Below, piece after piece: positions 3,004 to 32,570 of a stretch of DNA of 64,000 bases. The translations under genes and the position numbers were made by a program. Under the pieces are notes generated by a model. The model saw only the letters and a list, made by a program, of their open reading frames with translations, was not told where the DNA came from and ran no database searches. The stretch covers positions 138,186 through 202,185 of the forward strand of contig JAXMCE010000001.1 of the NCBI GenBank assembly GCA_046349515.1, in the 5' to 3' direction. This DNA is from Alphaproteobacteria bacterium. Lineage in GTDB: Bacteria > Pseudomonadota > Alphaproteobacteria > CADEGL01. The first letter of the stretch is position 1; every line of letters begins with the position of its first letter.

Positions 3004-4470
3004 TCACTCGAAGGCGGCCGTGAGGTCGCCCGCATTCGCGCGCACGCCCGCGAGCGGCTCGAGCGCGAAGCGCCGCGTGATGAACTTGATGATCGAGGTC
3101 GTGTCGTATTGCGTGTGGTCAACGTGGCGCTTCTTCGCGAACGGCGAGACGATGATGAGCGGCACGCGATTCCCCGGCCCCCAGCGGTCGCCCGCCGGCG
3201 GCGGCACGTGGTCCCAGAATCCGCCGTTCTCGTCATAGGCGACGATGATCGCCGTCTTGCGCCAGAGCGCCGTGTTGGCCTGGATGCGCTGGATGAGCGA
3301 GACGATGTGCCGGTCGCCCGAGAGCACCTCGGCGTAGCCCGGATGCTCGTTGAGGTTGCCCTGAGGCTTGTAGAAGGCGACCTGGGGCAAGGTGCCGGCG
3401 TCGATGTCGCGGAGAAATTCGCCGCCGTCCTTCAGATGCTCGGCCCGGTCGGCCGTGCCCGGCGCGAAGCGGAGGAAATAGTTGAAGGGCTGGTGGTGCG
3501 GCTGGAAGTTGACCTTGCCGTTGTCGTAGATGATCGCGCGGTCGGCCAGCGCCTGGTTCCACGCACCCGCATACCAGGCCCAGCTGACGCCTTTTTCCGA
3601 GAGCGCGTCGCCGATGGTGCGCGCTGTCTGCGGCGGCATTCGCATCTTCGCCGCGGGATCCGCCAGCAACGGATCGCCGTCCGCGGCGGGCTTGATTCCG
3701 CTCGGCTGGTAGGGAGGCTGGAGCGTGTTGACGCCGTAGCCGTCCGGCGTCACGGCACCGTCGGCCAAGGCCGGCGGCCCGTCCATCGCGGATGCGGGTG
3801 AATCGGCCTTGCGTGCAAGCCGCCCCTCGCCGTCGAGCGTCGCGCGGATCGAGGCGTCCGCGTCCTTGAACTCGGGCGTGCAGGCGCAGACGAGCCAAAA
3901 GTGGTTGAGCATGGAGCCGCCGAAGGCGCCCATGAAGGCGTGGTCGGCGAGCGTGTAGCGCCGCGCGATCGACCACATCGGCAGTTTCGATCCGTCGTAG
4001 TAGCCCATGACGAGGCCGCCCGCATCCGAGACGGCGGCGAAGCGGTCGTTCCGCCCGCCATCGATCTGCTCCTGGTTCTGGTAGAAGCGGTGGACGAGGT
4101 CGCGCGTCGGCACGCTCAACGGCTTGGCGACGGGCTTCCGGTCGATGCGGAACGGCCGGTTGGGAAGGCCCGTGGGATAGCTCGGATCGGCCGTGCCGCC
4201 GGCATCCTTCTTGTCCGACCAGACCGGCGGCAGGGCGCTCAAGACCGCGCCGTTGCGGTCGACCTGCGGCACGTCATGCGCGAGCGCATCCTTGATGCCG
4301 CGAGCTCCGGGATAAAGGCCGTAGAGGTTGTCGAAGCTCCGATTCTCCGCGTAGATCACGATGATGTGCTCGATGCGGTCGATCGACGCGGCGCTTGCCG
4401 CCGACGCGCACGCGGCGCTTGCCGCGGCCAAGACCGAGACGACGCATCGGATCAATCGCCCTACGTCCAT
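3004..4470 (-). CDS. Secreted phosphoesterase / acid phosphatase (AcpA / phospholipase C family)
   Basis: The translation has the phosphoesterase-family signature (IVIYAENRSFDNLYG...; ...VAYDENGGFWDHV...). An N-terminal signal peptide (VLAAASAACASAASAAS) is present. The second ATG (4470) carries a GGAGGG RBS 4 nt upstream, so start 4470 is preferred over 4482. Confidence 0.75.
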   Translation of the reverse strand: MDVGRLIRCVVSVLAAASAACASAASAASIDRIEHIIVIYAENRSFDNLYGLYPGARGIKDALAHDVPQVDRNGAVLSALPPVWSDKKDAGGTADPSYPTGLPNRPFRIDRKPVAKPLSVPTRDLVHRFYQNQEQIDGGRNDRFAAVSDAGGLVMGYYDGSKLPMWSIARRYTLADHAFMGAFGGSMLNHFWLVCACTPEFKDADASIRATLDGEGRLARKADSPASAMDGPPALADGAVTPDGYGVNTLQPPYQPSGIKPAADGDPLLADPAAKMRMPPQTARTIGDALSEKGVSWAWYAGAWNQALADRAIIYDNGKVNFQPHHQPFNYFLRFAPGTADRAEHLKDGGEFLRDIDAGTLPQVAFYKPQGNLNEHPGYAEVLSGDRHIVSLIQRIQANTALWRKTAIIVAYDENGGFWDHVPPPAGDRWGPGNRVPLIIVSPFAKKRHVDHTQYDTTSIIKFITRRFALEPLAGVRANAGDLTAAFE

Positions 4471-4653: not shown

Positions 4654-5652
4654 CTAGGACCGCGTCGTCTCCATGAAGAACCGCGCGATGGCGCGGTCAT
4701 GCCAGGGCGCCTTGTGGCCCCGCGCGTGGAAGCCGACATGGCCGCCCGATTCCGTGAGCACCGGCCGCAGCATGGCGTTTCTCGGCCAATCGTACGCAAG
4801 GTACGGGCGCGGCGGAATCCACGGATCGTCGAGCGCATGGATGACGAGCGTCGGCACCCGCACGCCGTCGAGATAGGCCTTGGCCGAGCAATGGGCGTAG
4901 TAATCGTCGGCGCCCGTGAATCCGTTGCGCGGGGCAACGAAGGTGTCATCGAACGCATAGACGCTCCGCGCGCGCCGGATCGCGATCCGCTCCGCATCCG
5001 AGAGCGCCGCCGGCGCCGCGAGCGCTTCCTGCTTCATCGCGAGGATCATGTAGAGGTGATAGAGCGTGTTGCGCCACGCCATGAGGCGCTGGCCAGCCTC
5101 CGCAAGGTCGATCGGCGCCGAGATGACCGCGGCCGCGCGGAAGGGTGCCGCCGCCCCTTCCTCGCCGAGATATTTGAGCAGCATGGAGCCGCCGAGCGAG
5201 AAGCCGACCGCGACGATGCCGTTCGCCGTCACATGGCGCGGCAGCGATGCGAGAGCGCGCCGCAGATCGTCCGAGCGCCCCGCATGGTACTGGTCGCGGC
5301 AGAAGGCGCGGCTCGGCCCTGCGCCCCGGAGGTTCAAGCGCAGCACGGGGAAGCCCTCGCCGAGGAACCACGCGGCCGAGGCGCGCACATAGGCGCTGTC
5401 CTCGCAACCCGCGAGGCCGTGGATGATGACGACCAACGGCCGCACTGGCGCCCGCTCGACCGCCGCGCCATTCGCGTGGTAGGCGGCGGCCAGCGAATCG
5501 CCGTCGCCGAGCGGCAGGAGAATTCGCACGGCCGGCCACCGGTCGAGATTCGCGCTCGGCCGCACGAGGAAGTTGCGCACCGTCTGGAGATCGCCGCCCC
5601 ACCACGGCCCGCGCGGCCCGAATCGCTCTGCTGAATCGCCGATCCCGTGCAT
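4654..5652 (-). CDS. Alpha/beta hydrolase, YheT/ABHD-type
   Basis: PWWGGDLQT near the N-terminus, HGLAG...GFSLGG nucleophile elbow, and a C-terminal D...H. Start is set at MHGIGD (5652) by analogy with YheT N-termini. The track ORF extends to 5775 through the repeat region. Confidence 0.7.
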   Translation of the reverse strand: MHGIGDSAERFGPRGPWWGGDLQTVRNFLVRPSANLDRWPAVRILLPLGDGDSLAAAYHANGAAVERAPVRPLVVIIHGLAGCEDSAYVRASAAWFLGEGFPVLRLNLRGAGPSRAFCRDQYHAGRSDDLRRALASLPRHVTANGIVAVGFSLGGSMLLKYLGEEGAAAPFRAAAVISAPIDLAEAGQRLMAWRNTLYHLYMILAMKQEALAAPAALSDAERIAIRRARSVYAFDDTFVAPRNGFTGADDYYAHCSAKAYLDGVRVPTLVIHALDDPWIPPRPYLAYDWPRNAMLRPVLTESGGHVGFHARGHKAPWHDRAIARFFMETTRS

Positions 5653-5707: not shown

Positions 5708-5844
5708 GACGAACAGGGCGCCAAATCAATTGCCGCGCCCGCCCCCACGCGGCACACTCCGCGGCACCGCAACACGCTTGGTCACAGTTTCGCCACACGA
5801 ATGATGACCGTGTCCCTCATGCGCACCAATACGAGCGCCGTCTC

Positions 5845-6990
5845 TTGAGACGAGCCCTGAGGCTCCTCGTTCCTCTGGCCTTCCTCCTCGTCCTCCCGTT
5901 TGCCGCGGGAGCGGAGTTCGAGGCGGGACAGCGTGCCTACGACCAGGGCGATTTCGCGATGGCCTTGCGCGAGTGGCGGCCGGCGGCCGATGCGGGCCAT
6001 GCGGGCGCGCGGAACGGTCTCGGCCTTCTCTATCGCGACGGCAAGGGCGTGGCGCCGAGCGATGCGGAGGCCGTCGCCTGGTTCCGCCTCGCGGCCCAAC
6101 AGGGCTCGGCCGAGGCCGAGAACAATTTGGGCGTCATGGCCGAGGAAGGGCGCGGCGTCGCCCAGAACGATGCTGAGGCCGTGCGCCTCTACCGGAGCGC
6201 CGCGGAGAAGAAGCTGCCGGCGGCCGCAAGCAATCTCGGCCTCATGTATGCGAGGGGCCGCGGCGTGCCTCGCGACGACCAGGCGGCCGTGCGCTGGTTC
6301 CAGCTCGCGGCCGCGCAAGGCTATGCGCCGGCGCAGCACAATCTGGCCTTCATGTATGTCGAGGGGCGCGGCGTCGCGCAGAATTTCGCCGAAGCCGTGC
6401 GCTGGTACCGCCAGGCCGCGGCGCAGGGCCACGCGGCGGCGCAGAACAACCTCGGACGGCGCTACGAGCTTGGCCAGGGAGTCGCGACCGACGAGGCCGA
6501 GGCCGCGCACTGGTACCAGCTCGCAGCCGCTCAGGGGCGCACGGAGGCACAGTTCAACCTGGGGCAGCTCTACGAGGATGGGCGCGGCGTGCCACGCGAC
6601 CTGGCCGAGGCGCGCCGCCTCTACGAGCAGGCGGCGGCGAAATACCCGCCGGGGCGCGAGCGCGACGACGCGATCAAGGCGCGCGACCGCGTGAACGCCA
6701 AGCTCGCGGCCGCGATCGGCGAGCCGGCACTCGCCGGCGCGTGGCGAAGCACGACCGGCGCCCGCCAGTCGCTCACCATCAGGGACACGGGCGACTATCT
6801 TCTTCTCACGACGACCGCCGCGGGCGGCGAGACGCGCGAGACGGGCCGCTGGTTCGCCAAGGACGGGCGCGCCACGCGCATGGCCCAGGGCCGCACGGTC
6901 GAGCTTCGCTACCGTCTCATCGACCCCCAGAGCTTCGAGACTGCCCCGTCGGGCGGGGCCTGGACGCGCTGGGTCCGCGCCGGAACCTGA
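5845..6990 (+). CDS. Secreted Sel1-repeat (TPR-like) protein
   Basis: Signal peptide LLVPLAFLLVLPFAAGA. At least 7 tandem ~36-aa Sel1 repeats (AEAVRWYRLAAQQGxAxAQNNLGxMYxxGRGVxxD...). Confidence 0.8.
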   Translation: MRRALRLLVPLAFLLVLPFAAGAEFEAGQRAYDQGDFAMALREWRPAADAGHAGARNGLGLLYRDGKGVAPSDAEAVAWFRLAAQQGSAEAENNLGVMAEEGRGVAQNDAEAVRLYRSAAEKKLPAAASNLGLMYARGRGVPRDDQAAVRWFQLAAAQGYAPAQHNLAFMYVEGRGVAQNFAEAVRWYRQAAAQGHAAAQNNLGRRYELGQGVATDEAEAAHWYQLAAAQGRTEAQFNLGQLYEDGRGVPRDLAEARRLYEQAAAKYPPGRERDDAIKARDRVNAKLAAAIGEPALAGAWRSTTGARQSLTIRDTGDYLLLTTTAAGGETRETGRWFAKDGRATRMAQGRTVELRYRLIDPQSFETAPSGGAWTRWVRAGT

Positions 6991-22280: not shown

Positions 22281-22417
22281 GACTCCTCGCGATTGCCCCG
22301 GCACGAGCCGGATTGTAAGGTCAGGCCGTTACGCGCGGGCCGGTGCCGCGCCGGTGCGAGCGCACATGGCGGCCGCGCGCCCAGGGCGGGGGAGCAGTTG
22401 ATTCGGGCGATCGAGCG

Positions 22418-23539
22418 ATGAACCGTCGCGACTTCCTGGGCGGCGCAAGCGCCGGTGTCGTGATCGGGACCGTGGCCGGTTACGGTCTCGCAACGAACAA
22501 CAAGAGAATCGTCATGCCCGCGGCCAAGCCCGCGGTGCGGGAGCTGCGCCTCATCACATCCTGGGCCAAGGAGACGCCGGGGGTTGGCCCCGCGAGCGAG
22601 CGCCTGGCCAAACGCATCACCGACGCGGCAGCGGGCCAGCTCGTGGTCAAGGTCCTCGCGCCCGGCGAGGTCGCGCCGGCGACCGGGTCCTTCGATGCCG
22701 TGTCGAGCGGCGCGGCCGAGATGTACTTCGGCCCGGAGTATTACTGGCAGGCCAAGTCGAAGGCGTACAACTTCTTCGCCTCCATCCCGCTCGGCCTGAC
22801 GGCGGTCGAGCTCGGCGCGTGGATTCGCTTCGGCGGCGGGCAGGCGCTCTGGGACGAATTGTCGGCGGGGTTCAACATCAAGCCGATCCTCGCGGGCAAC
22901 TCCGGCGCGCAAATGGGTGGCTGGTACACGAAGGAGATACACTCGGTCGAGGATCTCCGCGGCCTTCGGATCCGCATGCAGGGAATCGGTGGCGAGGTCA
23001 TGCGACGCCTTGGCGCCGTCGTCGCGGCACTGCCCGGCGGCGAGATTCTCGGCGCGCTCGAGTCCGGTTCGATCGACGCGGCGGAATGGATCGGCCCCTG
23101 GGGCGACCTCACCTTCGGCTTCTACAAGGTCGCGAAGAATTACTACTTCCCCGGATTCCACGAGCCGTGCACGGCGGTGACGCTCGGCATCAACAAGAAA
23201 CTGTGGGACGAGCTCACGCCCGAGCAGCGCAATGTCATCGAACTCTCGGCTACTGCCGAGAACGACACGCTTCACGCCGAATTCACCGCCAACAACGCGG
23301 ACGCGCTCGAGACTCTCGTCGGCCAGCACCAGGTGCAGCTGCGCCGATTCCCCGATTCCGTCCTGTCCGCGATCGTCAAGGTCTCCGAGGAGGTCCTGGC
23401 CGAGCTCGCGGCGGGCGACGACATCACGAAGCGGATCCATGAGAGCTACGCGGCCTTCCGCCGGAAAGCCGCCGCCTGGTCGCAAGTCTCCGACCGGGCC
23501 TATCTCGATTTCCGGGGCGGCACGCTCCCGTCCGGCTGA
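22418..23539 (+). CDS. TRAP transporter solute-binding protein (DctP/COG4663-type), paralog 1
   Basis: Tat-like signal MNRRDFLGGASAG. Conserved WRMxTSWxK...GGW(Y/F)xKE...AAEW(I/V)GPxxD...GFYKVAKxYY framework shared with the next gene. Confidence 0.8.
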   Translation: MNRRDFLGGASAGVVIGTVAGYGLATNNKRIVMPAAKPAVRELRLITSWAKETPGVGPASERLAKRITDAAAGQLVVKVLAPGEVAPATGSFDAVSSGAAEMYFGPEYYWQAKSKAYNFFASIPLGLTAVELGAWIRFGGGQALWDELSAGFNIKPILAGNSGAQMGGWYTKEIHSVEDLRGLRIRMQGIGGEVMRRLGAVVAALPGGEILGALESGSIDAAEWIGPWGDLTFGFYKVAKNYYFPGFHEPCTAVTLGINKKLWDELTPEQRNVIELSATAENDTLHAEFTANNADALETLVGQHQVQLRRFPDSVLSAIVKVSEEVLAELAAGDDITKRIHESYAAFRRKAAAWSQVSDRAYLDFRGGTLPSG

Positions 23540-23661
23540 GACCGGCCAAGGCCCCTACCCCTTCGCGCCATGCCGTCTCCATAGTGTAATATCCGCGCCT
23601 TGCGGGCCGGCCGCTGATCGGAACGATCGCGCGCGGCCGCTCGAATCGAAATGGAGGGGTC

Positions 23662-24762
<1,101 letters not shown>

Positions 24763-24785
24763 CGGCGGGCGAACCATCGTCCAGC

Positions 24786-24814
24786 GAAAAACCCCGCGAA
24801 CGCGGGGTTTTTTG
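24786..24814. terminator. Bidirectional rho-independent terminator between convergent TRAP SBP genes (+) and dctM (-)
   Basis: aaaaaCCCCGCGaacGCGGGGtttttt is a perfect 7-bp GC stem with a 3-nt loop, flanked by an A-run 5' and a T-run 3', so it is functional on both strands. Confidence 0.65.
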
Positions 24815-24841
24815 TTGGACCGAGGACGGGACGGCGCGGAC

Positions 24842-26359
24842 TCAACCGCCTCCGCCTTTCAAGGAACGCTCGATGGCCTTCGCGGGATCCTCCTCCTCGC
24901 CGTCGGACGGCGGCGTCACGTCGCCCTCGGGCGCGCCCAACTCCGGCGTCGGCACCTCGATGTTGATCTGCGAGGGCTCTGCGGCCGGGCGGCGCACGGC
25001 GTCGAGCACGAGGGAGGGGAAGGCAATGACGAGCACCACCATGACGAGCTGGATGCAGACGAAAGGCACCGAGCCCCAGTAGATCTGCCCCGTCGTGACT
25101 TTCGCGGTCAGCCGTCCCGTCACCTTGTCGATGAAGTCGGATTGGGGCGCCACGCTCCGCAGGTAGAACAGCGCGAAGCCGAACGGCGGGTGCATGAACG
25201 ATGTCTGCATGTTCACGCCCAAGAGCACGCCGAACCAGATGAGGTCGATGCCGAGCTTCTCCGCGACCGGACCCAGGAGCGGCACCACGATGAAGGACAG
25301 CTCGAAGAAATCGAGGAAGAAGGCCAGCACGAAGACCAGGATGTTGACGACGATGAGGAAGCCGACCGGCCCGCCGGGCAGCCCGATCAGCAGGCGCTCG
25401 ACCCACAGATCGCCGTTCACGCCGCGGAAGACGAGGCTGAACACGGTCGAGCCCACGAGGATGAACAGAACGAAGGAGGAGATCTTGGCCGTGGTGTCGA
25501 CGGCCTGGCGGAGAAGGGTCCAGCCGAGCTTGCGGCGGGCGACGGCGAGAATCAGCGCGCCGGTCGCCCCCATGGCGCCGCCCTCGGTCGGCGTCGCCAC
25601 GCCGAGGAAGATGGTCCCGAGCACGAGGAAAATGAGGAGAAGCGGCGGGATTAGCGAGAAGACGACGCGGCGCACGAGCGTGAAGCCGCGGAGGCTCCGC
25701 GCCTCGGGCGGCAAGGCCGGCGCCGCATCCGGGCGGAGGATCGTCGTCCCCAGCACGAAAAGGGCGTAGAGCCCGGTCAGCACGAGGCCGGGCGTGAAGG
25801 CGCCCTGGTACATGTCGCCGACCGAGCGGCCGAGCTGGTCCGCCATGACGATGAGGACGAGGCTCGGCGGGATGATCTGGGCGAGCGTGCCCGAAGCCGC
25901 GATGACGCCCGACGCCAGGCGCCGGTCGTAGCCGTAGCGCAGCATGATCGGCAACGAGATGAGCCCCATCGAGATCACGGAGGCCGCGACGACTCCCGTC
26001 GTCGCCGCGAGCAGCGCGCCCACGAAGATGACCGCATAGGCGAGACCGCCTCGAAGCGGGCCGAAGAGCTGGCCGACCGTGTCGAGGAGATCCTCGGCCA
26101 TGCCGCTTCGCTCGAGGATGAGGCCCATGAAGGTGAAGAACGGAATCGCGAGGAGCGTGTCGTTGCGCATGATGCCGAAGATGCGCTCCGGCAGGGCCTG
26201 GAGAAGCTCGGGCGTGAGAAGCCCGAGCTCGATGCCCAAGAGGCCGAAGGCGAGCCCGTTCGCGGCCAGCGCGAAGGCGACCGGATAGCCGCAGAGAAGG
26301 AAGACGACGAGGGCCGCGAACATGAGCGGTGCTATCTCGGCGATGATGAACGAGGTCAT
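24842..26359 (-). CDS. dctM: TRAP transporter large permease subunit DctM
   Basis: 505 aa, about 12 or more TM helices, with DctM-family conserved segments (GxxAxxGALxxxIPPS, PFGFALFYL). The start overlaps the dctQ stop (ATGA). Confidence 0.85.
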   Translation of the reverse strand: MTSFIIAEIAPLMFAALVVFLLCGYPVAFALAANGLAFGLLGIELGLLTPELLQALPERIFGIMRNDTLLAIPFFTFMGLILERSGMAEDLLDTVGQLFGPLRGGLAYAVIFVGALLAATTGVVAASVISMGLISLPIMLRYGYDRRLASGVIAASGTLAQIIPPSLVLIVMADQLGRSVGDMYQGAFTPGLVLTGLYALFVLGTTILRPDAAPALPPEARSLRGFTLVRRVVFSLIPPLLLIFLVLGTIFLGVATPTEGGAMGATGALILAVARRKLGWTLLRQAVDTTAKISSFVLFILVGSTVFSLVFRGVNGDLWVERLLIGLPGGPVGFLIVVNILVFVLAFFLDFFELSFIVVPLLGPVAEKLGIDLIWFGVLLGVNMQTSFMHPPFGFALFYLRSVAPQSDFIDKVTGRLTAKVTTGQIYWGSVPFVCIQLVMVVLVIAFPSLVLDAVRRPAAEPSQINIEVPTPELGAPEGDVTPPSDGEEEDPAKAIERSLKGGGG

Positions 26360-26919
26360 GGCCCGTCCGTCGCGGATTCGGCGTGGAGACTCGGCGGCTT
26401 CGCGGCCGGGTCTTCGATGAGGCCCATGAGGAACGCCACGCGCTTGACGATCTCGGAGACGCCCTGGAGGGCGAGAAGCGAGAACCCGACGGGAATCAGC
26501 AGCTTCACCGGCCAGCGGAGAAGGCCCCCCGCGTCGCCCGAAATCTCATGGCGCGTGAAGGATTCGACGAAAACCGGCCAGGACAGGCGGATGACGATGA
26601 TCGAAATCGGCAGGAGGAAGAACAGTCCGCCCAGGATGTCGATCCAAGTCTGCACGCGGCGCGAGAAGCGGCCGCTCACGATGTCGATCCGCACATGCTG
26701 GTTGCGCAGGAGCGTGTAGCCGGCGCAGAGGAGGAACACGGCCGCGAAGAGATACCACTGCACTTCGAGCCAGGCGTTCGAGCTGGTGTTGAGCGCGTAG
26801 CGGACGGTGGCATTCCCGGCGCTGACCAGCACGGCGATGAGGATGAGCCATGCGACGATCCGGCCGACGCCGGCGTTCAGCCGGTCGATGAGGCCGCTCA
26901 AGGCGAGGAGCGCTTTCAC
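26356..26919 (-). CDS. dctQ: TRAP transporter small permease subunit DctQ
   Basis: 187 aa, 4 TM helices, located immediately upstream of dctM and translationally coupled to it. Confidence 0.8.
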   Translation of the reverse strand: MKALLALSGLIDRLNAGVGRIVAWLILIAVLVSAGNATVRYALNTSSNAWLEVQWYLFAAVFLLCAGYTLLRNQHVRIDIVSGRFSRRVQTWIDILGGLFFLLPISIIVIRLSWPVFVESFTRHEISGDAGGLLRWPVKLLIPVGFSLLALQGVSEIVKRVAFLMGLIEDPAAKPPSLHAESATDGP

Positions 26920-26997
26920 GCCGCTCCCTCCGCGATCCCGCCAGCGCGCGAGGGGCGCATGCGGATCGACACGGTGACCATCACATGCGGCGATGCG

Positions 26998-27573
26998 TCA
27001 GGGGCGAAGGCGCCGGACCAGTTTCCAGGCGAGCGGCATGGCGCAAGCGGCGAGCGCGATCTTCAAGGCATCGCCGAGCAGGAACGGCAAGAGCCCCTTC
27101 ACGACGGCGGCGCCGAGCGCTGTCTCGGCACCCGTCGCCGCCACATGGGCCGCACCGGGTCCGGCAAAGAAGTTTGTGAGCCAGGAGAGACCGCAGGCGT
27201 AAATCACCAGATTGCCCGCGACCATCGCGCCGATGGTCGAAAGGACCGTGCGGCTCCAGCCGCGCTCGGCGAGCCAGCCGACGGCGGCCGCGGCGAAGAT
27301 GAAGCCGACGAGATAGCCACCCGTCGGACCGATGATGGCCGCGGGACCTGAGGCCCATTTCGCGAACACGGGAAGGCCGACGGCCCCTTCGCCGAGATAG
27401 AGCGCCAAGGTGGCGGCACCGAGGCGCGAGCCGTAGGCCATGCCGACGATGAGCACGGCGAAGGTTTGGCCCGTGATCGGCACCGGCCAGAGCGGCACCT
27501 GGATCTGGGCCGACGCCGCGACGAAGACGCTGCCGAGAACGGCAAGCAAGACATTGCGGAGCACCGCCGGCAT
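26998..27573 (-). CDS. bioY: BioY-family biotin transporter (ECF S-component-like)
   Basis: VPITGQTFAVLIVGMAYG...GPTGGYLVGF are conserved BioY motifs. Start is set at MPAVLRNVLL. The track ORF starts 18 codons upstream (27627). Confidence 0.75.
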   Translation of the reverse strand: MPAVLRNVLLAVLGSVFVAASAQIQVPLWPVPITGQTFAVLIVGMAYGSRLGAATLALYLGEGAVGLPVFAKWASGPAAIIGPTGGYLVGFIFAAAAVGWLAERGWSRTVLSTIGAMVAGNLVIYACGLSWLTNFFAGPGAAHVAATGAETALGAAVVKGLLPFLLGDALKIALAACAMPLAWKLVRRLRP

Positions 27574-27684
27574 GTCCCGTGCCGGCGCAAGAGCGCCGAT
27601 GAGCGTCGCGTGAGACGGTGCGCGCATGGAAGTCTCCCTGGTTCGATACCTTCCCCTGCCCGCCCTTATAGCGTGGGGCCTGCC

Positions 27685-29907
27685 TCAGGCAAACCGATTC
27701 GAGCGGGGGAAGCCCGTGGGCGGCAGGCGGCCGGCCTGGGCGCGCTTGCCGATCCAGTCGCCGAGCTCGGTGAAGGAGCGGCTCCGCTCGCCCGCCTGGC
27801 AGGTGAGGCCGGCCGACAGCGTGAACACGATCGCATCGGCCAAGCCGCCGCTCGCGTATTTCTGCAGGATCACGCCGCGCCCGCGCGCCATCTCGGGCAC
27901 CTCTTCGAGGGGGAAGATGAGGAGCTTGCGGTTCTCGCCGATGACCGCGACCGAATCGCCCTCGGCCGGTACCGCCACGATCGCGCGCCCCTCATCGCGC
28001 AGGTTCATCACCTGGCGACCCGCGCGCGTCTGGGCGATCACCTCGTCGCCCGCGGCGAGGAAGCCGCGCCCGTCGCTCGAGGCCAGGAGATACTTGGCGC
28101 CCGGCCGGTGCACGTGGATCGCGCTCACCTCGTGCTCGTTCTCGAGATCGACCATGAGCCGGATGGGCTCGCCCATGCCGCGCCCGCCGGGAAGCCGGTC
28201 GGCGCCGATCGTGTAGATGCGGCCGTTCGTCGCGAAGACGAGGAGCTTGTCCGTCGTCTGGGCGTGGAGCACGAACTTGCCCTGGTCGCCTTCCTTGTAG
28301 CGAAGCTCGGATGCATCCGCGAGGTGCCCCTTCTGCGCACGGATCCAGCCCTTCTCCGAGCACACGACGGTGATCGGCTCGCGCTCGATCATGACTTCAA
28401 TCGGCACGATCTCGGCCGTCGGCGCCTCGGCGAAGCCCGTGCGCCGCTTGCCGAGCTCGGTCTTGGGGCCGAAACGTTCGCGGATCTCCTTGATCTGCTC
28501 GGCGATGACGCTCCACCGCCGTCCCTCGTCTTTCAAGAGCCGCGCGAGGTCTCGCTTCTCGGCCGTGAGCGCTTCATGCTCGCGCTTGATCTCGATCTCC
28601 TCGAGTTTGCGGAGAGCGCGGAGACGCATGTTGAGGATGGCTTCGGCCTGGATTTCGGTGAGCTTCCACCGCTTCATCATCTTGGTCTTGGGATCGTCCT
28701 CGGTGCGGATGATCTTGATGACCGCGTCGATGTTGAGATAGGCGATGAGATAGCCGCCCAAGACCTCGAGCCGGTGGTCGATCTCCTTCAGGCGATGGCG
28801 CGTGCGGCGCAGCAGCACCTCGTGGCGGTGGTCGAGGAAGGCCTTGAGCGCCTCGCGCAAGTTCATCACGCGCGGCGTGTTGTCGCTGTCGAGCACGTTC
28901 AAGTTGAGCGGCACGCGCACTTCGAGGTCGGTCTGGCGGAAGAGAGTCTCCATCAAAGTCTCGGGCGCGATCGCGCGGCTGCGCGGCTCGAGCACGATGC
29001 GGAGATCCGCGGCCGACTCGTCGCGGATGTCGGCCAGGGCCGCGAGCTTCTTCTCCGCGAGCAACTCCGCGATCCGTTCGATGAGCCGCGACTTCGGCAC
29101 CTGGTAGGGAATCTCGGTCACGATGACGCGATAGGTCCCGCCCTTCTGGCGATCGACCTCGTAGCGCGCGCGCACCCGGAATCCACCCCGGCCCGTGTTG
29201 TAGGCCTCGCGGATCGCGTCACGCGGCTCGACGATGATGCCGCCGGTCGGAAAATCCGGCCCCGGCACCATCTCGACGAGCTTCGCCACCGTCGCGTTGG
29301 GGAACTTGATGAGGTGGAGCAGCGCATCGCACAGCTCGGCCGCGTTGTGCGGCGGGATGCTCGTCGCCATGCCGACGGCGATGCCCGTCGCCCCATTGGC
29401 GAGGAGATTGGGGAAATTGGCCGGCAGCACCACCGGCTCCTCGCCCTCGCCGTCATAGGTCGTGCGGAGGTCGACCGTGTCCTCGTCGAGCCCGTCGAGG
29501 AGCGCCTGGGCCACGGCCGTCAGGCGCGCCTCGGTGTAGCGCATGGCGGCGGCGTTATCGCCGTCGATGTTGCCGAAATTGCCGTGCCCCTCGACGAGGG
29601 GATAGCGCTGCGCGAAATCCTGGGCGAGGCGGACGAGCGCGTCATAGACCGCGACGTCGCCGTGGGGGTGATACTTGCCGATGACCTCGCCCACGACGCG
29701 CGCGCACTTCTTGAAGCCGGCCTCGGGGTCGAGGCGCATCAGGCGCATGGCGTAGAGAAGCCGCCGGTGGACGGGCTTCAAGCCATCGCGCACATCGGGG
29801 AGCGAGCGCGCCATGATGGTCGAGAGCGCATAGGACAGGTACCGCTCGCCCAAAGCCTGAGCGAGCGGCGTCGGGCGGATCTCACCGGCGGTCGCCGCTT
29901 TGGCCAT
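27685..29907 (-). CDS. parC: DNA topoisomerase IV subunit A
   Basis: GyrA/ParC N-terminal domain with the active-site region (YAMRLM...HPHGD...[10 protein letters not shown]). About 740 aa without a GyrA-box, consistent with ParC. Start is at ATG 29907 (MAKAATAGE...). Confidence 0.85.
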
Positions 29908-30039
29908 GGCGCACCTTATGCCCAAGCCCTTGGGGGCTGGCAAGGAAAACAGTCAAAATGTTGCGTCTGATGCGGTTCCGATGGCGAACGCGAGAGGCGG
30001 GAGTCGGCGCGGGTAATTGCAGCCGGGCCGCGGCAAAAC

Positions 30040-30225
30040 TAAGATCGCCGGCGATGGCTCCCCTCTTCGGGGATTAAAAGGGAACGCCGGTCGGGCCCCT
30101 AGGGCCCAAGCCGCGGCTGCCCCCGCAACTGTGAGCGGCGAGCCGATCGCCAATACGCCACTGGGACACCGGGAAGGCGGCGATCGGTGACGACCCGCAA
30201 GCCAGGAGACCTGCCATCGCAAGGG
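30040..30225 (+). promoter_or_regulatory. Cobalamin (B12) riboswitch
   Basis: Conserved elements appear in canonical order: AAAAGGGAACGCCGGT (30075-30090), GCTGCCCCCGCAACTGTGAGCGG (30117-30139), GCCACTGGGACACCGGGAAGGC, and the B12 box CAAGCCAGGAGACCTGCC (30199-30216). It lies 5' of the porin gene on the same strand. Confidence 0.8.
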
Positions 30226-30343
30226 GTCACGTGCGAGCGCGCTGGGCGGGGTGCACCGGCGGGAATCGACGCCCCCCGCCGGGGGGGCAACGTCGGATCC
30301 GGTTCGCGGGTGACGTGGAATGTCTTCCGCAACCGAGGTCCGC

Positions 30344-31822
30344 ATGAACGCCTTGCCTTCCGATGGGAACTCCCGTGCTCTTCGCCCGACATCGGTCTCA
30401 AGCGGCGGCGCGAACGCACGCGCACCGCTTGGCACTATCTGGCTCACTGTCGCGCTCATGACGGTGTGCGCCGTGTCTTCGCGTGCCGATGAAACGGAAT
30501 CGGCTCCCATGACAGATGGGCCCGACAAGGCGGACGACGCGGCGGCGCCCGACGGCCTCACCGGCGACTGGGGCGGTCTCCGCACGAGTCTCCGCGATGC
30601 GGGGCTCGAGCTCGGCGTCACCTATATCGGCGAGGGCCTGGGCAATCCCGCGGGCGGCGTCAAGCGCGGCGCCATCTACGAAGGCCGGCTCGAGATGAGC
30701 CTCGACATCGACCTGGCCAAGGCCATCGGGTGGGACGGCGCGCTCATCCACGCTAACGCGTACCAGATCCACGGCCGCGGCCTGTCGGCCAAGGATCTGG
30801 GCAACAACTTCCTCGTCGCGAGCAGCATCGAGGCGCTCCGTTCAAGCCGCCTCTTCGATTTGTGGTTCCAGCAGGAGCTGTTCGACCGGCGCGTGTCGGT
30901 CCGCGCGGGGCAGATCGCCGCGGACGACGAGTTCTTCATCAGCGACTACGGCGCGACCTTCGTCAATTCGACCTTCGGCTGGCCGGGCATCCTCGCGGCC
31001 GATCTGCCGAGCGGCGGCCCCGCCTATCCGCTCGCGACACCCGGCTTCCGCATCAAGCTCCAGCCGGCGAAGTCCCTCACCCTCTCGGCGGCGCTCTTCG
31101 ACGGCGATCCCGCGGGACCCGGCCAAGGCGACCCGCAGGCGCGCGACCGAAGCGGCACCAACTTCCGCACGAGCGACGCGCCCTTCACGATCGGCGAGCT
31201 GGCCTATGCGGTGAAGCCCGACAAGAGCGACGATCGCCTGCCCGCCACCTACAAGCTCGGCGCCTGGTATCACGCCGGACGCTTCGACGATGTGCGCTTC
31301 GACAACACCAGCCGCTCCCTCGCCGATCCTGCGAGCACCGGGATCGCCGCGACGCACCGCGGCAACTATGGCGGCTATGTCGTGCTCGACCAGATGATCT
31401 GGCGGCGTCCCGACACGGAGGATGAGGGGCTCGGCGCGTTCTTGCGCCTCTCCGGGAGCCCGTCGAACCGGAACGTGATCGATCTCTACGCCGATGGAGG
31501 TCTTACCTTCAAAGGCATCGTGCCGAGCCGCAGCGACGACATCCTCGGCCTCGGTATCGCCTTCGCGCGCGTGAGCAGTGCCGCACGCAATCTCGATTCG
31601 GACACCAACGCCTTCACCGGCTCGGACGCGCCGCGGCGCGTCTTCGAAGCCGCACTCGAACTCACCTACAAGGCGCAGGTCACGCCGTGGTGGTCGATCC
31701 AGCCGGACCTGCAATTCATCATCCATCCGGCTGGCAATGCCGCCAATCCCGCGAGCGCGTCAGGCACCGAGCCGATCCCCAACGCCTTCATCATCGGCCT
31801 CCGGAGCACGATCAAGTTTTAG
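30344..31822 (+). CDS. Carbohydrate-selective (OprB-family) outer-membrane porin
   Basis: Signal peptide (LTVALMTVCAVSSRA). Beta-rich sequence with OprB-family features (GDWGGLR, LGAWYHAG) and a C-terminal aromatic residue (…TIKF). Start is at the ATG with a GAGG RBS. An in-frame ATG also lies at 30320. Confidence 0.7.
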   Translation: MNALPSDGNSRALRPTSVSSGGANARAPLGTIWLTVALMTVCAVSSRADETESAPMTDGPDKADDAAAPDGLTGDWGGLRTSLRDAGLELGVTYIGEGLGNPAGGVKRGAIYEGRLEMSLDIDLAKAIGWDGALIHANAYQIHGRGLSAKDLGNNFLVASSIEALRSSRLFDLWFQQELFDRRVSVRAGQIAADDEFFISDYGATFVNSTFGWPGILAADLPSGGPAYPLATPGFRIKLQPAKSLTLSAALFDGDPAGPGQGDPQARDRSGTNFRTSDAPFTIGELAYAVKPDKSDDRLPATYKLGAWYHAGRFDDVRFDNTSRSLADPASTGIAATHRGNYGGYVVLDQMIWRRPDTEDEGLGAFLRLSGSPSNRNVIDLYADGGLTFKGIVPSRSDDILGLGIAFARVSSAARNLDSDTNAFTGSDAPRRVFEAALELTYKAQVTPWWSIQPDLQFIIHPAGNAANPASASGTEPIPNAFIIGLRSTIKF

Positions 31823-31850
31823 GCGAGCCGCGCCTCAAGGATGGCGGCGA

Positions 31851-32570
31851 TCAGAGGCGCGCGATCCGCTCGGCAAGGCGGAAGCGCGCATCGGGCAACG
31901 TGCGGCCGTGGGGCGCCAACACGTGCTGGGCGAGGAAATGCGCGGTCAGGCCGAGCCCAGCCGATAGCGCCGCCGGCTCGGCCACGCCTCCCTCCTCGAG
32001 AAGGAAGCCCGGAAGGGCGAGCAGACGGTCCTTGTAGGGCTCGCCCGCCGCGAGCGACACGGCGCGCCCGGTCCGCGGCGAGACATAGGCAAGCGACTCG
32101 GTCTCACCCGTGGCCGCGCACGCGCCGAGGTCGAGGCCGAAGCCGAGGTCGCCCAAGAGCGCGAGTTCCCACCGCACATAGGTCTCGCCCCACGCATCGC
32201 CCTCGAGCGAGTCGAGCACGCGCGCGAGGCCGGCATAGACGAGCGGATGCGGCTCGCGCTCGGGCAGCGCCGCCTCGGCCACGGCGCAGGCCGAGCTCAA
32301 GACCGCGAGGCGCAGCGGATCGTCGAGCATGCCCGCGGCCGTGCTCTGGACGAGCTCGCAGCGGAACGTGCCGAGATGCTCCTCGAGCCGCGCGTGCCAG
32401 GACGCATGGACGCGGTTGCCGCGTTCGAGCACGCCCCGCGCGCGCTTCCCGCTCCCGCCGCGGACGAGCCCCGCGTGCCGTCCGTGCGCCTCCGTCAGCA
32501 GCACGGCGATGGCGGCCGATTCGCCGTGCCGCCGCGCCGAGAGAACGATCCCTTCGTCCGACCAGTCCAT
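31851..32570 (-). CDS. recO: DNA repair protein RecO
   Basis: 239 aa. N-terminal OB-fold (DEGIVLSARRHGESAAIAVLLT) followed by a C-terminal helical domain. Conserved position downstream of era. Confidence 0.85.
   Translation of the reverse strand: MDWSDEGIVLSARRHGESAAIAVLLTEAHGRHAGLVRGGSGKRARGVLERGNRVHASWHARLEEHLGTFRCELVQSTAAGMLDDPLRLAVLSSACAVAEAALPEREPHPLVYAGLARVLDSLEGDAWGETYVRWELALLGDLGFGLDLGACAATGETESLAYVSPRTGRAVSLAAGEPYKDRLLALPGFLLEEGGVAEPAALSAGLGLTAHFLAQHVLAPHGRTLPDARFRLAERIARL

Follow-up and report, generated by a model that had tools for sequence, protein, structure and literature searches.

In Proteobacteria, cbtB-cbtA operons carry a cobalamin riboswitch in their 5′ leader and encode an inner-membrane transporter, and cobalt supply is repressed when B12 is replete. 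The locus described here lies in a 64,000-nt stretch of an alphaproteobacterial contig (JAXMCE010000001.1, positions 138,186 to 202,185; “the window”, whose own numbering is used throughout), in which a riboswitch of the same family precedes the gene for an OprB-family porin. The likeness to cbtB-cbtA lies in this leader and in a regulatory logic that would be the same; the differences are that the window product is an outer-membrane β-barrel channel and that its gene stands alone in a housekeeping setting, the 64 kb containing neither cbt nor cob genes. The porin is read here, with modest confidence, as a B12-repressed outer-membrane Co2+ channel feeding corrin synthesis, similar in its logic to cbtAB and in its type of protein to the manganese channel MnoP.

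Which outer-membrane proteins come closest? The btuB leader of E. coli and Salmonella also combines a cobalamin riboswitch with an outer-membrane protein and acts by sequestering the ribosome-binding site, a feature predicted in the window as well. BtuB, however, is a 22-stranded, plugged, TonB-dependent B12 transporter, whereas the window porin is 16-stranded and passive, with neither plug nor TonB box. Pseudomonas OprB (4GEY, 4GF4), whose gene lies in a glucose-uptake operon, matches in Pfam family and in its 16-stranded fold (TM-score 0.86), but it is only about 25% identical to the window porin, whose clade is found beside metal transporters and regulators. A metal-sensing protein regulator, and no riboswitch, controls MnoP of Bradyrhizobium japonicum. 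MnoP (blr0095) contains an OprB-type barrel domain within a 675-aa fusion to an N-terminal Omp_b-brl/BRP domain (PMC4827864) and is a Mn2+ outer-membrane channel made only under nutrient scarcity (PMC9334652). As an alphaproteobacterial, scarcity-induced nutrient-metal channel with an OprB-type barrel, it is the functional model for the window porin; the latter differs in being a single OprB domain of 492 aa without the Omp_b-brl/BRP fusion, and in that its substrate would be Co2+, whereas that of MnoP is Mn2+. A further parallel is the Fur-regulated OprB-family porin encoded upstream of feoAB in Geobacter sulfurreducens (PMC545781). Like the window porin on the present reading, it falls under a metal-nutrient regulon and is predicted to admit a divalent metal ion; unlike it, the Geobacter porin answers to a protein repressor (Fur), serves iron, and is co-operonic with an inner-membrane transporter. 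The icuA/icuB locus of Methylobacterium, the one experimental lead on cobalt uptake, was considered as a precedent and rejected: IcuA is no porin but a TonB-dependent receptor.

On outer-membrane entry of cobalt, reviews say merely “porins or TonB-dependent transporters” (PMC7689651). No description linking a cobalamin riboswitch to OprB or to any porin, or OprB to cobalt, was found in a literature search that left subscription journals mostly uncovered and to which tables in comparative-genomics papers may add mentions. Taken singly, the RNA is an unremarkable RF00174 aptamer and the protein an unremarkable PF04966 porin; the novelty lies in their pairing and its implications.

The Riboswitch and Its Porin

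The aptamer, of the adenosylcobalamin (AdoCbl) type, spans 30038-30232 on the plus strand. It scores 120.2 bits against RF00174 (Rfam cmscan; gathering score 31.5, E 1.4e-29), covers model positions 1-189 of 189 and is the sole match in an Rfam scan of the whole window; it is full length and includes the peripheral P6 extension, which is typical of AdoCbl-class aptamers. The B12 box, CAAGCCAGGAGACCTGCC (30198-30215, plus strand), aligns with the conserved AGCCAGGAGACCuGCC of the Rfam consensus; for the B12 box and the core motifs (GGGAA, GCCACUG) together, the segments AGCCAGGAGACCUGCC, GGGAAC and GCCACUGG all agree with that consensus. Two contigs of the same species, L148 (ENA ERZ773282) and L149 (SRR1772176), are 99% identical to the window; the aptamer sequence in L148 is identical and is detected by covariance model R1 too. 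We propose that this riboswitch binds AdoCbl and represses the downstream gene. The initial annotation had recognised the riboswitch by eye, an assignment that the RF00174 search bears out, and had placed the B12 box about 125 nt before the porin start; the distance is 129 nt to ATG 30344 and 105 nt to ATG 30320.

These two codons are the candidate starts of the porin. The open reading frame (ORF) 30320-31822 matches Pfam OprB (PF04966) over its entire profile (1-372 of 372; 332.5 bits, gathering score 22.9, E 5.7e-99) and nothing else in a Pfam scan, which returned no TonB-dependent-receptor domain. The likely start is ATG 30344, because a Shine-Dalgarno (SD) sequence, GAGG (30335-30338, plus strand), precedes it by 5 nt; the gene then occupies 30344-31822 on the plus strand and encodes 492 aa. 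Public gene calls on the same-species contigs (L148 4997-6310 and L149 321-1634, equivalent to window 30509-31822) begin at Met64 instead, giving 437 aa and losing the signal peptide; this start is probably mis-called, since it is ATG 30344 that has the GAGG. By inspection only, the signal peptide is 48 aa long, with LGTIWLTVALMTVCAV as its hydrophobic stretch and SSRA|DE after it, and the protein ends in ...IKF, with a terminal Phe. The reading frame is supported by third-position changes, which make up 13 of the 18 coding-sequence substitutions separating the window from a same-species contig.

Among solved structures, P. putida OprB is the nearest in sequence (4GEY/4GF4, E 3.5e-31). An AlphaFold (AF2) model built from 48 homologs has 16 strands and a mean predicted local distance difference test (pLDDT) score of 78.5, mostly above 90 in the barrel, and Foldseek returns 4GEY as its best match (E 1.1e-33). 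At 492 aa and 16 strands the protein is no TonB-dependent receptor of the BtuB type, and the earlier description of the downstream ORF as an OprB-like barrel holds.

A Predicted Translational Switch in the Leader

From the end of the aptamer to ATG 30344 there are 112 nt, with the porin on the same strand. What could this interval do? RNAfold predicts an SD-sequestering hairpin at 30294-30342 (plus strand) as the expression platform, with the SD in its 3′ arm. The energy is -29.0 kcal/mol for 30294-30346; the hairpin recurs in both the minimum free energy and the centroid folds of the leader, and the ensemble pairing probability is at least 0.88 for three of the four SD bases. Scans of 29850-32000 found no U-tract or intrinsic terminator and no sigma-70 promoter consensus. 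From the lack of a U-tract terminator and the position of the SD inside so stable a hairpin, we infer that B12 likely represses translation (an OFF switch). An alternative partner for the hairpin's 5′ arm is the B12-box region (-23.5 kcal/mol, compared with -24.6 for the sequestor pairing), an arrangement that, as an inference only, would fit the classical anti-sequestor picture.

The riboswitch would thus be the 5′ leader of a single-gene transcript for the 16-stranded porin. When coenzyme B12 is plentiful, the aptamer would be bound and the hairpin would keep the ribosome-binding site closed; the porin would then go untranslated, possibly with Rho-dependent termination as a consequence. Under B12 scarcity the site would open and the porin would be made.

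Comparison with the same-species contigs gives 0 substitutions in the leader and 18 in the coding sequence. This was rejected as a sign of leader constraint: 16 of the 18 differences from L148/L149 are clustered in 325 nt of the porin gene (31330-31654) and look like a recombination patch. The cluster suggests either such a patch or local diversification of surface loops.

Metal Genes Beside Related Porins

Loci encoding homologs 29-68% identical to the window porin were fetched from GTDB genomes (67) and metagenomes (80), and exact-protein look-ups added eight distinct loci, for a total of about 155. The nearest non-self homolog (P0002, locus L155; 68% identity) groups with the window porin in a neighbor-joining (NJ) tree, and its gene follows cbtA, in the same orientation, after 71 nt. 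The visible 124 residues of this CbtA match PF09490 (76.4 bits, E 3.9e-21). Adjacency to a cobalt transporter or to cob genes, as in a B12-riboswitch cobalt-uptake regulon, is thus seen in L155 and not in the window. Three cbtB-cbtA operons (L156, L157 and L160) whose CbtA is 55-59% identical to that of L155 were examined: all three have RF00174 directly upstream of cbtB (96.5-118.8 bits), and these operons adjoin cob genes (cobS, cobT, cbiA and a cobD-type aminotransferase). None of the three has a porin after cbtA. By analogy with them, a cobalt-uptake operon under riboswitch control probably ends with the L155 porin.

Metal genes recur beside other members of the family. In L128 the porin follows CbiM-PDGLE by 40 nt, and in L033 (Bradyrhizobium sp. 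ORS 375) it follows CorA by 12 nt. Nramp is encoded upstream of the porin in eight loci and MgtC downstream in two (L070, L151); divergent MntR/DtxR regulators occur five times and Fur once. EfeB-type peroxidases are neighbours in L118, L119 and L028; in L161 the porin is preceded by a heavy-metal P-type ATPase and an LTXXQ protein; and L044, L039, L152 and L154 have clusters of imelysin, OprB, di-haem oxidoreductase (DHOR), imelysin and DUF1513. Neither btuFCD nor btuB adjoins the porin in any of the approximately 155 loci. A sister gene behind cbtA and relatives beside metal genes point to passage of a divalent metal, which in the window would be Co2+; this gene context argues against carbohydrate selectivity. 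PurU-like genes, too, are found beside the porins (seven times).

Two side observations concern these neighbourhoods. A conserved secreted protein, some 175 aa long and unmatched in Pfam, with the motifs PNRIEW, PYAGG.VR.F and GEYQT, is encoded directly upstream of the porin in about 25 homolog loci (for example L014 5376-5906, L017 5492-6016, L004 5264-5797, L003 5380-5946, L090 3358-3936 and L006 5276-5914). Its gene, which often overlaps the porin start, does not occur in the window; the protein probably serves that porin subgroup as a dedicated partner. A gammaproteobacterial porin homolog in L053 is closely followed by a fluoride riboswitch (RF01734, 54.2 bits; 3495-3561), and the corresponding stretch of L140 shows the same. 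The next gene, of 132 aa, is probably crcB; CRCB occurs twice among the neighbour families.

Repeated Capture of the Riboswitch

Is the riboswitch a regular companion of this porin? Rfam at its gathering threshold was run on 52 of the 147 fetched loci, and a home-made covariance model, based on the aptamers of the window and of L048, on all 147; by both, a cobalamin riboswitch is present in just one, L048. The home-made model is sensitive, as it later picked up three unrelated cbtB riboswitches (35-96 bits), and the porin gene could be called in 115 loci, 98 of which have more than 350 nt of upstream sequence. With the look-ups included, only 2 of the roughly 155 loci besides the window, L150 and L048, carry the riboswitch, so the answer to the question, which the initial annotation had posed for related genomes, is no. 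Single-sequence nhmmer and a B12-box regular expression were run over the loci first and then set aside. The expression gave several minus-strand near-matches some 2 kb ahead of porins (L014, L017, L019, L097 and L109), none of which is a riboswitch according to an Rfam scan. Rfam scans found no Mn, Mg, NiCo-type or other riboswitches upstream of long-leader homologs.

The three riboswitch-bearing porins fall in different subclades of the NJ distance tree, and those of L150 and L048 each have close relatives that lack a riboswitch; on this evidence the riboswitch has been gained by porin genes at least three times. The captured aptamers are intact and full length, at 100-135 bits. L150, on a 1.13-Mb contig, encodes a porin (P0011) 59% identical to that of the window, with RF00174 upstream at 5419-5620 (100.3 bits). 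The nearest relative of this porin, L151 (77% identity), has the arrangement Nramp ... porin-MgtC and no riboswitch. Between the L150 riboswitch and porin lies an 84-aa ORF (5750-6004) whose stop and the porin start overlap in ATGA; no Pfam match is on record for it, and it has no homolog in the other fetched loci or in the window.

L048, whose aptamer scores 134.7 bits, is on comparison with its sister genomes a directly visible leader swap onto an existing gene. L048, L044 and L039 share an imelysin-OprB-DHOR cluster, and the flanks in L044 and L039 have 87-92% nucleotide identity to those of L048; the riboswitch is absent from both, as it is from L152 and L154, which have the same cluster. 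A segment of 611 nt in L048 (5332-5942) stands in place of 173 nt in L044/L039 (5794-5966): the replaced piece comprises a short intergenic spacer and the signal peptide, whereas the insert brings in the riboswitch, an expression platform and another signal peptide. The two versions meet precisely where the mature porin begins, at DCDVTDNG.

What Does the Porin Carry?

The porin clade would consist of OprB-type channels for divalent metal cations rather than sugars, and the window member would let Co2+ cross the outer membrane to supply corrin synthesis, as the outer-membrane counterpart of the inner-membrane cobalt importers controlled by B12 riboswitches (CbtAB, CbiMNQO). Several observations weigh against this. 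The window holds no cobalt or B12 gene at all, which leaves relatives as the basis of the cobalt link. The L155 contig ends inside cbtA, so that a riboswitch there is assumed, and the 71-nt spacer before its porin (376-446) holds a 7-bp GC-rich hairpin (GCCTCGC ttccat GCGAGGC) with no clear U tract, which could attenuate read-through from cbtA and makes co-transcription uncertain. The family has mixed neighbours, sugar-type ones among them, with AP_endonuc_2 (xylose-isomerase-like TIM barrel) 11 times and the major facilitator superfamily (MFS) four times, and the metal neighbours suggest mostly Mn, Fe or Mg, not Co specifically. MnoP reportedly excludes Co2+, which implies that channels with an OprB domain can be metal-selective. 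In L048, a one-nucleotide insertion at 6167 (an A, outside a homopolymer) relative to L044 frameshifts the porin; it may be a sequencing or assembly error in a long-read metagenome-assembled genome, or it may mark a real pseudogene. As for the switch, the platform fold has a z-score of only -1.5, other coding-sequence 19-mers pair with the B12 box equally well in a sliding-window control (down to -24.1 kcal/mol), and the equivalent segment of L048 is not the best pairing partner of its B12 box; the sequestor/anti-sequestor model is statistically undistinctive.

Could the metal be a different one? A channel for Mn2+ or Fe2+ (or Zn2+) might be induced at low B12 as B12-independent enzymes raise the demand for metal, with Fe/Mn ribonucleotide reductases replacing NrdJ or Zn-MetE replacing MetH. 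B12-riboswitch control of B12-independent isoenzymes is known, most metal neighbours in the clade are of the Mn/Fe type (Nramp, MntR, Fur, EfeB, imelysin/DHOR), and the riboswitch-bearing L150 and L048 porins sit within subclades of the Nramp/MgtC and imelysin types, respectively. Against this, the cbtA-linked porin is sister to that of the window, CbtA, CbiM and CorA neighbours point to Co, and Nramp transporters carry Co2+ too; a Mn/Fe channel is therefore rather unlikely. The family name and the glucose selectivity of its only solved member would instead make the protein an ordinary porin for carbohydrates or small solutes in general, under B12 control through a metabolic link unrelated to metals (methionine, dimethylbenzimidazole or a substrate whose catabolism avoids B12 enzymes), and the xylose-isomerase-like and MFS neighbours of some homologs agree with this. 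Such a role is hard to square with three independent captures of a B12 riboswitch; the identity to 4GEY is low, the closest relatives have metal neighbours and not sugar ones, and we regard it as unlikely.

The initial annotation had pictured a porin that takes up corrinoids or remodels outer-membrane permeability in general. Its pairing of riboswitch and porin stands; its functional inference is not the one favoured by the metal-gene neighbours, which point to Co2+, a cargo that it had not considered. A corrinoid channel would be a TonB-independent, passive, riboswitch-gated route for B12 or precursors such as cobinamide, doing the job of BtuB at low intracellular B12. B12 riboswitches very commonly control B12 uptake genes, btuB among them, and here a stand-alone gene has a riboswitch of its own, with no BtuB seen in the window; but an OprB-type barrel of 16 strands has no plug domain or TonB box, pores this size already shut out solutes much lighter than B12 (about 1.35 kDa), and the homologous loci adjoin metal-ion transporters or regulators in many cases and B12 transport genes in none, which makes this route quite improbable. 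Could the pairing mean nothing, a recent rearrangement that left a relic or non-functional riboswitch in front of the porin? Its rarity, the unique placement of the porin between parC and recO and the frameshift in L048 speak for this. The aptamer is nevertheless intact and high-scoring, the SD-sequestering platform is correctly placed, the substitutions in the porin lie mostly at third codon positions, and full-length aptamers were acquired repeatedly; juxtaposition by chance is thus very improbable. The reading as a B12-repressed Co2+ channel remains the preferred one.

Genomic Setting of the Locus

The porin is a stand-alone gene inserted in a housekeeping region. Upstream, parC (topoisomerase IV subunit A; TIGR01062 parC_Gneg, 857.8 bits) is divergent, on the minus strand from 27685 to 29907 or 29943; with the riboswitch on the plus strand, the initial judgement that parC is an unlikely target is sound. 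Downstream, recO (31851-32570, minus strand; Pfam RecO_N/RecO_C and TIGR00613) converges on the porin, 28 nt past its stop, so the porin would be monocistronic. Past recO follow era, lepB, acpS, pdxJ, spoT and rpoZ. Neither parC nor recO is found beside the porin in any homolog locus: the placement in the window is unique, and orthology by position was unusable for want of shared synteny. Beyond parC (22343-27627) lie genes for a BioY biotin transporter (26998-27627, minus strand), and for the TRAP transporter proteins DctQ and DctM (minus strand) and two DctP (plus strand), none of them linked to the riboswitch.

Implications

How cobalt passes the Gram-negative outer membrane is essentially uncharacterised, and the metal-specific passive channel found in the literature is MnoP. 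The window porin is a concrete, testable candidate for a cobalt entry channel; if it is one, the B12 regulon extends to outer-membrane permeability. For the family at large, the annotation “carbohydrate porin” is probably misleading across a large alphaproteobacterial OprB clade, and the comparison of L048 with L044 and L039 offers a clean natural example of a leader swap in which a riboswitch and a signal peptide would have moved together onto an existing porin gene.

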